A DNA stretch of 14,298 nt. It comes from a virus. Lineage: Duplodnaviria; Heunggongvirae; Uroviricota; Caudoviricetes. Below are positions 6,001 to 9,000 of the stretch, in pieces. Positions within the stretch are counted from its first letter, which is position 1; every line of letters begins with the position of its first letter. The stretch lies in IMG/VR virus record IMGVR_UViG_2529293045_000016; one strand, written 5' to 3'. The position numbers are program-made.

Positions 6001-9000
6001 GCTCGCAATACCCAGAAAATTTTCCGCTGGATAGAGAAAGACACCCCTGATGCAGTTGAAAAAATGCAGGCTCTGTTACCGGCGATCGAAAAGGCAATGC
6101 CGCCTCTGCTGGTGGCCCGTATGCGCAGTCACAGCTCTGAATATTACCGTGAGATCGTCGAACGGAGGGATCGGCTGGTGAAAGATGTGGATGATTTTGT
6201 CGCAGCGGCGATCGCCTGGGGCACCCTGACTAACAGTGGGGGTCAGCCTGGTAATGCTGTTGTCGTGCATTGACCAACAATATTCATGCCGGATTTCTTC
6301 CGGATGTTCGAGGGTAAAGTTCGGTATCAGAAGAGGTGAGTATGGCTAATGCCTGGCTCAGATTGTGGCATGACATGCCAAATGACCCCAAGTGGCGAAC
6401 GATTGCCAGGGTATCAGGACAGCCAATCGCAACAGTGATGGCAGTGTATATCCATCTTCTGGTGAGCGCGTCACGAAATGTCACGACATGTCACGGCGTG
6501 TCACTACGTGGTCACATTGATGTCACGACGGAAGATTTAGCAAGTGCGCTTGATGTGACGGAAGACGTAATTGATTCAATTTTGCATGCAATGCAGGGGC
6601 GGGTTCTGGATGGTGACCTTATTTCCGGATGGGAAAAACGTCAGGTGCTGAAAGAGGACAATGGTAACGTTTCGCAAACGGCAAAATCCCCGGCAGAGCG
6701 CAAGAGAGCGCAGCGGGAGCGGGAAAAGCTGCGGAAACATAATGCTGATTGTCACGATGAGTCACGACGTGTCACGCATCTGTCACGACAAGTCACGACA
6801 GATAAAGATACAGATAAAGATACAGATACAGAATTAAACCCCACACATAACGCGCGCGAGAGTATTCCGACCAGTGAGTCGAATGGTGCGCCGTTGCAGA
6901 CAGCCGAACCTGAATACCTGGACGGCCTGAGCGAACCGATCGGGAAATTTTCGATGACTACTGTCTGGCAGCCGTCGCCGGATTTTCGACAACGGGCAGC
7001 AGTGTGGGGTATGGCTCTGCCTGAGCCGGAATTTACACCTGCTGAGCTTGCCGCATTCCGGGATTACTGGATGGCGGAGGGGAAGGTTTTCACGCAGGTT
7101 CAGTGGGAGCAGAAATTTGCCCGCCACGTGCAGCACGTCAGGGCACAGGTAAAACCAGTCAGCAAGGGGGGAAGCCATGCAGCATCAGGTGGCACGGCAT
7201 CACGGGCAGTTCAGGAAATCCGGGCTGCACGCGAACAGTGGGAACGTGACAACGGATTTATCAGCAACGGAAACGGCCTGGAAGCTGTGGGAGCTCATGG
7301 GGGAGGTGTATTCGAACCGCTGGACTCAGAAGAACGGGGCCGCACCTTCGAAGCTCTGGATTGCCCAGATTGGTGCGATGACTGAACAGCAAATCCGTCT
7401 GGTGTGCCGTCAGTGCATGGACCGCTGCCGGGCGGGTGAAACGTGGCCCCCGGACCTGGCTGAGTTTGTTGCGCTGATTTCGGAGAGTGGGGCAAATCCA
7501 TTTGGTCTTACGGTGGATGCCGTGATGGAAGAGTACCGGCGCTGGCGCAATGAATCCTGGCGATACGACGGGAGTGATAAATACCCGTGGCCACAGCCTG
7601 TGCTGTACCACATCTGCCTCGAAATGCGTACCAGAGGGATTGAGCGCCAGATGACGCAAGGTGAGTTAAAACGACTTGCGGAACGGCAACTGACGAAATG
7701 GGCAAAGCATGTTGGTAACGGGATGAGTGTTCCGCCAGTGCGACGACAACTGGAAGGGGCGAAACACCCGCAAGGGCCAACGCCAATTGAACGGCTGAAA
7801 CAGGAATACGAACGCCGGAAGGCAGCTGGTTTTATTTGAATCTGAGAAACGATTTTGTCGGAGGAAATATTAATGGAAACCGTATTTGACGCACTGAAAG
7901 CACTGAAAAAAGCCTCTTCACAGGTAGTGGCATCGCGCCTTGGAATCAGCCGCGAAGATGCTGTCAACGAACTGTGGAAACTGAAGCGCCGTGGTGAAGC
8001 GGATAACAAGGGGTCGATGTGGTGGCTGACTCAGACTGGTGAAAGTGAACCAGTGTCACCGGTACCGAAAGTGACAGCGCAAATGCTGACTGAGGCGATT
8101 GAACATCATGGCCCACAAACGGCGGATGAGCTGGCACTGATGTTCGGGATTACCTCCCGCCGGGCGAATTCATCACTGGCCATGGCAATCAGCAAAGGGC
8201 GTCTGATTCGCGTGAATCAGGGCGGTAAATTTCGGTACTGCATACCGGGCGCTGATTTACCGGCAGAGCCGAAAGCCGCATCCATAACGGAAACGGATGG
8301 TAAAGCCTTTCCTCAGCCAGCAGGTGTTGCGTTACCAGTCGGGGAAGCGGAAACACAGGAAGAAATAAAAACGGAAAGTGTGGCGGTCACAGTGCAGTCA
8401 CAGCCGTCGTTCACCAGAAAGCATCCGGATGGTCTGATTTTACCATCGCTGCATGTGGCTAACCGCGAGCTGCGCCGGGCAAAAGGTCAGGTTCAGAAGT
8501 GGGAGCGAGTCTGCGCCGCGCTGCGGGAGCTGAACAAGTGCCGGGATATTCTCCGGGATATTACCGCCACCAGAGAACAGCAGCGGTGAGTGGGTGGAAG
8601 ACGTGGTGCCGGGCGGAAATCATGATACTCCGGCAGTGTGCGGGAACGATGAAGGTAAAAAGCGTTGGCGCACTTATCGGACGAACTGAAGCGGCAGTGA
8701 GAACGAAGGCACGGGAGCTGGGCATCAGCATGATGTTACGTGGTGATTTTCACCCGTCGGCAAAATATTCTCAGCGTGATATTGAGCTGGCGCGGCAACT
8801 GCATCAGAGAGGCATGCAAAGAAGGGAAATTGCCAGAAAATTAGGCATGCCGCTGCGCATAGTGAATAACTACGTTTATTTCGACAGGAGGGTGTCTGCG
8901 TGAAAATCCTGTATCAGGATTACGGCCCGGTGGGGCAGGTGGTTATCAGCAGTACTGTAATGGAGTTTCGGAAGCATAACCGTGTGGTGGATGCTGTGCT

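Follow-up and report, generated by a model that had tools for sequence, protein, structure and literature searches.

Two helically phased repeat arrays and an A/T-rich tract within an initiator gene

A candidate replication origin lies inside a phage initiator gene on a stretch of 14,298 nucleotides of Caudoviricetes DNA (IMG/VR record IMGVR_UViG_2529293045_000016), referred to here as the window. The gene (6342..7385, + strand) is an open reading frame (ORF) of 347 amino acids (aa), and two arrays of a short repeat, together with an A/T-rich tract, are contained within it. It belongs to a lambdoid immunity and replication region, in which CI-like, P22-Cro-like, YdaT/CII-like, initiator, lambda-P-like and DUF1627 genes follow one another in that order. 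Prophage DNA of E. coli O157:H7 matches the window at 100% identity; the annotated copy is L001, from strain TR01.

An earlier note on this DNA had reported eleven copies of a GTCACG-core repeat, spaced at 10–11 bp and falling into two clusters within the coding sequence. This description holds, with the core relaxed to GTCAC: there are eleven coding-strand copies in two same-strand arrays, and nine of them are exact GTCACG, on the + strand within 6470–6797. Array 1 (6470..6527, + strand) comprises six GTCAC(G) copies, at 6470, 6480, 6490, 6500 (GTCACT), 6511 (GTCACA) and 6522, with spacings of 10/10/10/11/11 bp. Array 2 (6751..6797, + strand) comprises five exact GTCACG copies, at 6751, 6761, 6771, 6782 and 6792, with spacings of 10/10/11/10 bp. 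The arrays are 281 bp apart measured start to start, in agreement with the distance of about 280 bp given before, and 223 bp of sequence separate them. Tandem Repeats Finder assigns both a period of 10. The repeated element is a 6-bp asymmetric core, the other positions of the unit being variable. A single inverted core copy (GTGAC on the + strand; 6555..6559, – strand) lies 33 bp past the last direct copy of array 1.

Enrichment and clustering of this degree exceed chance by a wide margin. Exact GTCACG occurs 17 times in the window, compared to 5.8 ± 2.2 expected from dinucleotide-preserving shuffles (0/200 reach 17), and the densest cluster has five copies within 60 bp, compared to a maximum of two in 300 simulated first-order Markov sequences.

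Array 2 was said to be followed by an A/T-rich tandem repeat, and such a tract directly abuts it (6798..6839, + strand). It consists of a 12-bp unit, ACAGATAAAGAT, repeated 2.9 times at 6798–6832 (Tandem Repeats Finder), and then AATTAAAC; it encodes DKDTDKDTDTELN, and its top strand is purine-rich. GC content is 25% at 6800–6839, versus ~50–57% in the surroundings, and the 45 nucleotides at 6798–6842 are 67% purine and 69% A/T. No other 40-mer in the gene has a lower predicted duplex stability (nearest-neighbour free energy –42.3 kcal/mol, mean –54.6, z = 2.8), and in the window as a whole it ranks fifth from the bottom. No rival repeat array or comparable candidate origin was seen in the 14.3-kb window. 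A further short sequence, AGAGCGCA, occurs twice, 10 bp apart, at 6695–6712, in a region just upstream of array 2 that encodes a basic helix; this doubling may be due to chance or may be an origin component.

The repeats are selected as DNA

As the period of 10–11 bp is not a multiple of three, the motif appears in all three reading frames. Successive GTCAC copies lie in frames 2, 0, 1, 2, 1, 0 (array 1) and 1, 2, 0, 2, 0 (array 2), and the motif is accordingly translated in three ways, as SR, VT or CH/GH. Three frames with differing peptides mean that the GTCACG arrays are not a peptide repeat.

We aligned the codons of 21 homologues from different genera, with protein identities of 50–70%, and compared synonymous codon use inside and outside the motif. 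Normalised codon entropy was 0.04 in the 10 conserved columns whose third base lies in the motif, versus 0.78 in the 69 other conserved columns (Mann–Whitney p = 5e-7). Several motif codons are fixed or nearly so: Val is GTC in 21/21 genes at three positions, Thr is ACG in 21/21, Gly is GGT in 21/21, His is CAC in 20/20 and 19/19, and Ser is TCA in 20/21 and 21/21. At equally conserved residues outside the motif, almost all synonymous codons are in use. The same rigidity extends to the inverted copy, where the Val codon is GTG in all 18 sequences with Val at that position, and to the A/T-rich tract, whose first GAT AAA GAT is fixed even in GC-rich hosts that favour GAC elsewhere. The repeats are selected at the DNA level, and a peptide-repeat reading of the GTCACG arrays is ruled out by the three frames and the frozen synonymous sites.

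Both arrays are conserved, and their core sequence switches in concert

Relatives of the N-terminal 163 residues are found in 38 species-level genomes and hundreds of viral contigs. Both GTCAC arrays occur at matching gene offsets in Escherichia (including E. albertii), Shigella, Rahnella, Serratia, Superficieibacter, Pseudomonas, Bordetella, Aquitalea, Chromobacterium, Acidovorax, Pseudothauera, Castellaniella and Gilvimarinus. In these relatives the first array lies at +128 to +159 and the second at about +386 to +417; most relatives of the GTCAC class also have the inverted GTGAC at a homologous offset (+192/+213), and a (C/A)AGATAAAGATAAAGA-type tract directly follows the second array. With same-orientation, helically phased copies numbering at least three in each array (6 + 5), selection at the DNA level and conservation across genera, the locus has several generic attributes of an iteron region.

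To classify the motif, we surveyed 127 distinct genes, reduced to 67 representatives. Three classes were recognized, with cores GTCAC(G) (31 representatives), CGAACGC (21) and GTAACG (8). There is one core per class, common to both arrays, and the tract after array 2 is kept in all classes. Members of a class are related to one another, and the number of independent switches between classes is therefore small. If the segment is an origin, the three classes would provide a natural specificity series for studying how a DnaD-like initiator reads DNA.

Relatives differ in copy number, with 3–6 copies in array 1 and 3–9 in array 2. In the window, two extra copies in array 1 account for 21 bp (10 + 11), or seven codons. 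This would be the smallest step that keeps both the helical phase and the reading frame, which suggests a reason for the alternation of 10- and 11-bp spacings. If the segment is an origin, the gene would be a clear example of coding sequence with a second, DNA-level code, one that expands in steps of 21 bp, equal to two helical turns and seven codons.

Isolated phages with this N-domain number 24 in the phage collection, and none is a model system. In several of the Pseudomonas phages phi1, 5399, 5371, phita81A and Marin (H47–H52), two hypothetical proteins are annotated in place of a single initiator, which may mean that the gene is divided, or wrongly annotated, near the repeats and the linker. 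We considered whether the Gilvimarinus homologue is a domesticated dopC gene and rejected the idea, since its neighbours (YdaT-like, P-like and NinB) indicate a prophage context.

Domain layout of the initiator and a candidate reading element

The earlier note called the initiator O-like. The label is apt for the position of the gene and for the analogy with lambda, but not for the protein family. A hmmscan search of the 347-aa protein against Pfam (E ≤ 0.01) returned only PF17948, the DnaT C-terminal single-stranded DNA (ssDNA)-binding domain, which agrees in both sequence and fold, and gave no match to PF04492, PF09681 or RepA_N; NCBIfam likewise gave no O-type match. Homology to lambda O was ruled out on these grounds. 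The replisome organiser N-terminal model TIGR01714 scored 17.2 bits (E = 0.0044), below its cut-off of 49.8. Remote PHROG matches were to 4880 'replisome organizer' (E = 6e-6) and 10469 'DnaD-like' (E = 6e-9), and close relatives carry the NCBI name 'phage replisome organizer'. When PDB sequences were searched with a profile built from the family alignment, DnaT alone was recovered, and weakly. Judging from its predicted fold, the N-domain is probably a winged helix of the type seen in the DnaD N-terminal domain and RepA_N.

An AlphaFold model is confident for two domains only, the predicted winged-helix domain (aa 1–100) and the DnaT-like ssDNA-binding domain (aa 203–269). Between them are a basic helix (aa 117–134, AERKRAQREREKLRKHNA; 6690..6743, + strand), which is helical in the model and encoded just upstream of array 2, and a disordered linker of 63 residues (aa 135–197) with a predicted local distance difference test score (pLDDT) < 50. 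It had been proposed that the translated repeats form a flexible linker. That is consistent with array 2 (aa 137–152), which together with the DKDT repeat spans aa 137–163 within the pLDDT < 50 segment, but not with array 1. The latter encodes aa 44–62, a loop/β-hairpin of the folded N-domain between helices 29–45 and 63–70 (pLDDT ~70). In iteron-less relatives this loop has the same length and an unrelated sequence, with only 'RG' kept.

Which part of the protein might read the repeats can be approached by comparing the motif classes. The winged-helix domain is nearly identical across all three, iteron-encoded peptides excepted, and where a 'recognition' helix would normally be expected, it has an acidic helix of variable sequence. 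Residues that discriminate between classes map to the array-encoded peptides and to aa 117–128 of the basic helix, in which residues 121 and 124 are class-specific. The helix reads ERKRxQRERE in the GTCACG class, ERAKAWRE in the CGAACGC class and (E/A)RV(R/K)x(Y/F)RE in the GTAACG class. By virtue of these class-discriminating residues, the basic helix is the best candidate for the reading head. The idea that the array-1 loop is the sole determinant of specificity is weakened, as the basic helix is also class-specific and relatives with GTCACG in the linker only (L297, L309) have an unrelated loop.

A more speculative idea, and one we regard as a long shot, is that the iterons are self-referential, such that the peptides they encode (the aa 44–62 loop and the linker by the basic helix) form part of their own reader. 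A change of motif would then alter site and reader in one step, which would explain how both arrays and the protein switch jointly while the rest of the N-domain stays near-identical.

An array-2 module recurs in other initiators

Viral contigs were scanned with the pattern GTCACG-N4-GTCACG-N4-GTCAC, which identified at least 120 loci; the following statements hold among the matches listed. This N-domain is present in 68 and absent from 52. Those 52 include many other ORFs of replisome-organiser-like character, a proportion of them from high-GC phages, in which a basic helix resembling (A)ERKRxQRER precedes a single GTCACG array in the linker. The tract after those arrays is a simple tandem repeat, usually purine-rich, as in (AGAGAAG)n, (GATACA)n and (CAGATG)n, and one such locus has 11 GTCACG copies. 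A few GTCACG arrays are intergenic (L376, minus strand, 9 copies; L284; L307). Some of the matches are probably due to chance. Initiator-like ORFs that lack this N-domain and have GTCACG arrays with 10-bp spacing include those of L380 (2784–2900), L297, L309, L286, L293 and L318.

The two arrays differ in what follows them. In the 40 nucleotides downstream of second arrays, mean A/T is 0.69 and purine 0.72; after first arrays, A/T is 0.48. We conclude from these comparisons that array 2 and the tract would form the ancestral core, array 1 being an addition in the WHDMPNDPKW subfamily. The array had been described as duplicated. There are indeed two arrays, but they do not reflect a recent duplication, given that the two-array layout is old and conserved and that wider relatives have the array-2 module only.

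The gene itself is a mosaic that divides at the tract. By BLAST, 6316–6833 corresponds to phages Evi and Tritos and other E. coli phages (85%), and 6802–7399 to ydaU of Rac-SA53 (88%). The N-module, with both arrays, and the C-module appear to recombine as separate units with their junction at the tract. Such a split is expected of an origin-specific N-module combined with a partner-specific C-module. YdaU genes of the DUF1376 type have another N-domain but have the ...AATAAAGATACAGATACAGAT... hinge and the C-terminal half in common with this gene, as if one origin plan had been combined with an unrelated N-domain. In L120 (2400–2530; Rac-SA53 ydaU) and L121 (2400–2530), different repeats precede the hinge (GTTCAAAC / TGTTTGAAC).

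A probable iteron-type origin and how it might work

Motif enrichment, DNA-level selection, conserved arrays, concerted switching, the unstable tract, the domain layout and the P-like neighbour together lead us to read the segment as an iteron-type replication origin of a lambdoid prophage, situated within the gene for its own initiator. We assign this reading a probability of about 0.7, inferring both binding and origin activity by analogy with known systems. The parallel that the earlier note had drawn with the lambda origin inside gene O is thereby strengthened, through DNA-level selection, conservation, concerted core switching, the unstable tract and the P-like neighbour.

We propose that the core origin module consists of array 2 with the tract (6798–6839), the latter serving as DNA-unwinding element, and that array 1 is an accessory site. 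The N-terminal module, consisting of the DnaD-like winged helix and the basic helix of aa 117–134, would bind the GTCACG cores. Since the cores are one helical turn apart and thus on the same face of the DNA, we propose that the initiator oligomerises along array 2, forming a wrapped or looped complex. This complex would probably be bridged to array 1 and the inverted copy, ~230 bp upstream. The resulting nucleoprotein assembly could stress and open the adjacent ~40-bp A/T-rich, purine-asymmetric tract, the exposed single strand might be held by the DnaT-like C-terminal domain, and the P-like protein encoded next door would deliver and load host DnaB.

If the segment is an origin, it represents a compact module in which a basic helix is combined with a 6-bp core that recurs at every helical turn and with a purine-rich tract of simple sequence. 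The module is present in related initiators of many proteobacterial prophages, several of them in E. coli O157:H7 and in Shigella; some high-GC phages apparently have it too. It would supply a sequence signature for locating origins in many lambdoid prophages without a lambda-type O gene, and it predicts cross-activation or competition between co-resident prophages of the same motif class.

Evidence against the origin and alternative explanations

A number of observations weigh against an origin here. Seven of the 67 representatives lack array 1 and have at most 1–2 degenerate copies as array 2, and relatives of this kind (L108, L110, L115 and L251) indicate that the arrays are dispensable to the protein family. 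One relative, L103, combines a GTAAC-type helix with mostly GTCAC repeats. The basic helix physically adjoins array 2, and hence its co-variation with the motif could reflect co-inheritance rather than recognition. The O157:H7 prophage is probably defective, to judge by its sequence: upstream of the window homologue in strain TR01 (L001 1–4300), the integrase is frameshifted and RecE is truncated, and IS66 and IS256 flank the prophage. In such a decayed element the origin may be unused or silent in the host, or usable only in trans. Finally, in the literature searched, which did not extend to subscription journals, there was no paper on the origin, binding, unwinding or replication of this family; work on the types of replication region in Stx phages, which was covered, does not describe it either. 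Provisionally, then, this GTCACG repeat and origin type appears undescribed in that literature.

The four loci named above as nearly devoid of repeats nonetheless retain the DnaT domain and the P-like neighbour. In one of them, L110 (2501–3845; a Ventosimonas metagenome-assembled genome), the upstream neighbour is a cellular peptidyl-prolyl isomerase gene, and the locus resembles the iteron-less, domesticated DopC/DopE pair.

An alternative role for the arrays would be as autoregulatory operators or transcription roadblocks, used by the initiator or another phage regulator to throttle the initiator and P, with the origin elsewhere. In the rightward early transcript, the sites come after cro and the ydaT-like gene, and array 1 is without an adjacent A/T tract (downstream A/T 0.48). 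Moreover, in plasmids P1 and F, extra iteron arrays serve replication control rather than initiation. However, array 2 is always coupled to the least stable, strand-asymmetric tract, of which a roadblock has no need, and the window offers no other repeat array or comparable site at which the origin could be placed. The layout, in addition, matches that of proven within-gene origins (PMC7466680, PMC5703833). We consider the operator explanation unlikely as a replacement for the origin; the two functions could, however, operate side by side, above all at array 1. It is less likely again that the repeats are bound by some other protein, be it a host factor or a phage protein such as the YdaT/CII-like one, instead of the surrounding initiator. 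The near-identity of the winged-helix domain across classes and its acidic, variable putative recognition helix would fit such a view. Yet the arrays stay with the initiator N-module when phages exchange modules, they are found in many phage backgrounds and hosts, and the basic helix of the initiator has class-specific residues; a host factor, for its part, would not explain three motif classes within related hosts.

The mosaic breakpoint at the tract, and the DUF1376-type YdaU genes that share the AATAAAGATACAGATACAGAT hinge and the C-terminal half, could instead mean that the main function of the tract, perhaps shared by the arrays, is to act as a hinge at which N- and C-modules are exchanged by recombination, with no role in initiation. 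This would leave unexplained both the three-frame repeats, spaced by one turn and frozen at synonymous sites, and the concerted motif switches in arrays ~230 bp apart. We judge it very improbable on its own; a hinge role is compatible with origin function and is probably secondary to it. Lowest of all we place the possibility, to which we give almost no weight, that the repeats exist for the sake of the protein, as a repetitive peptide linker, or that they arose neutrally by replication slippage. Admittedly, the 12-bp tract is in frame (DKDT repeats) and copy number varies (3–6 in array 1, 3–9 in array 2). Against this, the motif occurs in three frames encoding different peptides, its synonymous sites do not vary between genera, in contrast to the saturation seen at other conserved codons, and some GTCACG arrays, among the matches listed, are intergenic (L376, L284 and L307).

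Comparison with known systems

An origin inside the initiator gene is a textbook arrangement. Systems in which one initiator acts on two clusters of the same short repeat are also well known, namely P1 incC/incA, F ori2/incC and P4 ori/crr. In these, one cluster adjoins the unwinding region and the other is auxiliary or serves control; the repeats are 8–19 bp, and the clusters are either on the two sides of the rep gene or separated by kilobases. Here, by contrast, both clusters are inside coding sequence at a fixed distance of ~228 bp.

An N-domain, iterons in the linker region and a partner-binding C-domain make up a plan proven for lambda O (PMC7466680), SPP1 gp38/oriL (PMC6316719) and pSK41 Rep (PMC5703833). 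The likeness to lambda is considerable. In both cases the origin, here a candidate one, lies mid-gene, in the part coding for the segment that joins a DNA-binding N-domain to a partner-binding C-domain; direct repeats are followed by a ~40-bp A/T-rich tract downstream; a P-type helicase loader gene comes next; and the origin is within a pR-type rightward transcript. The proteins, however, show no sequence relationship (no PF04492 match), and the C-domain here is DnaT-like, not O-type. The lambda origin has four 19-bp inverted-repeat iterons, or six in variants from Stx phages (PMC7466680). As had been claimed, the repeats here are shorter and more numerous, with eleven copies of a 6-bp core against four to six 19-bp iterons. 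They also differ in being non-palindromic and recurring every 10–11 bp, in contrast to the dyad symmetry of the lambda iterons, and in being divided between two arrays ~230 bp apart, of which the first lies in DNA that encodes part of a folded domain.

In SPP1, the replisome organiser gp38 binds direct repeats in its own gene, with an adjoining A/T-rich unwinding element and the helicase loader gene next, a layout similar to the one proposed here; there are also two separated repeat regions, oriL and oriR, bound by one protein (PMC6316719). Its second site, though, is ~13 kb away rather than ~230 bp away in the same gene, and repeat sequence and host differ. The match of the protein studied here to the replisome-organiser N-terminal model is also far below cut-off (17.2 versus 49.8 bits). 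Plasmids of the pSK41 RepA_N type have an origin central in rep, with four Rep boxes, and a single box cluster is described (PMC5703833). The placement within the initiator gene is the same. The differences are that pSK41 is a Gram-positive plasmid rather than a proteobacterial prophage, that no RepA_N Pfam match was found here, that the repeat type is not the same, and that the C-domain there binds DnaG, whereas here a DnaT-like C-domain is accompanied by a separate P-like loader.

The closest protein architecture in the literature is that of DopC/DopE, a domesticated pair of O-like (N-terminal helix-turn-helix plus DnaT C-terminus) and P-like proteins from Cellvibrionales and Oceanospirillales (PMC5509034). 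Compared by architecture, both systems have a DNA-binding N-domain, a DnaT C-terminal motif and an adjacent P-like gene. DopC is reported to be without iteron-like sequences and not to act as an origin (PMC5509034), whereas prominent arrays and a prophage context are found here. What appears to be new in the present locus is the 6-bp core at each helical turn, the conserved pair of arrays with one in the code for a folded domain, the three concerted motif classes, and the purine-rich tract.

Gene neighbourhood and prophage context

Upstream of the initiator is a lambdoid control region (4892..6273), with genes identified through Pfam, PHROG 163 and RefSeq: a CI-like repressor with helix-turn-helix and S24 peptidase domains (4892–5530, – strand), a P22-Cro-like gene (5574/5622–5864, + strand) and a YdaT/CII-like gene (5776/5848–6273, + strand). 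Rightward transcription starting in this region would traverse the arrays. A weak promoter-like site is present at 5564–5593. For internal promoters or terminators, only consensus-level matches were obtained, at the rate expected by chance, and no DnaA boxes (TTWTNCACA) were found in 5500–7900.

The lambda-P-like helicase-loader gene lies downstream (7177..7839, + strand). Residues 58–187 of its 220-aa ORF match PF06992 (57.9 bits), and the ORF is also recognized by PHROG 109, 'P-like helicase loader'. RefSeq annotates a shorter coding sequence, 7378–7839 (153 aa, 'replication protein P'). Because the PF06992 match begins upstream of 7378, the annotated P is probably truncated at its N-terminus; the longer ORF from 7177 may be the true gene, in which case the initiator and P genes overlap. 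Homologous initiator and P genes overlap by ~110–190 nucleotides in L093 and L110. PHROG 15931 (482 positions) matches the initiator over positions 1–347 and the long P ORF over positions 279–482, and this span across both proteins implies that some database members are initiator–P fusions.

An Rfam scan gave no match in the array segment and, elsewhere in the window, only two. DicF small RNA (75 bits) adjoins dicB at 3198–3249 (– strand), and the sok antitoxin RNA (113 bits) accompanies a Hok/Gef gene at 10458–10632 (+ strand). Both the DicF and sok/Hok elements are usual cargo of Qin/Rac-like defective prophages.

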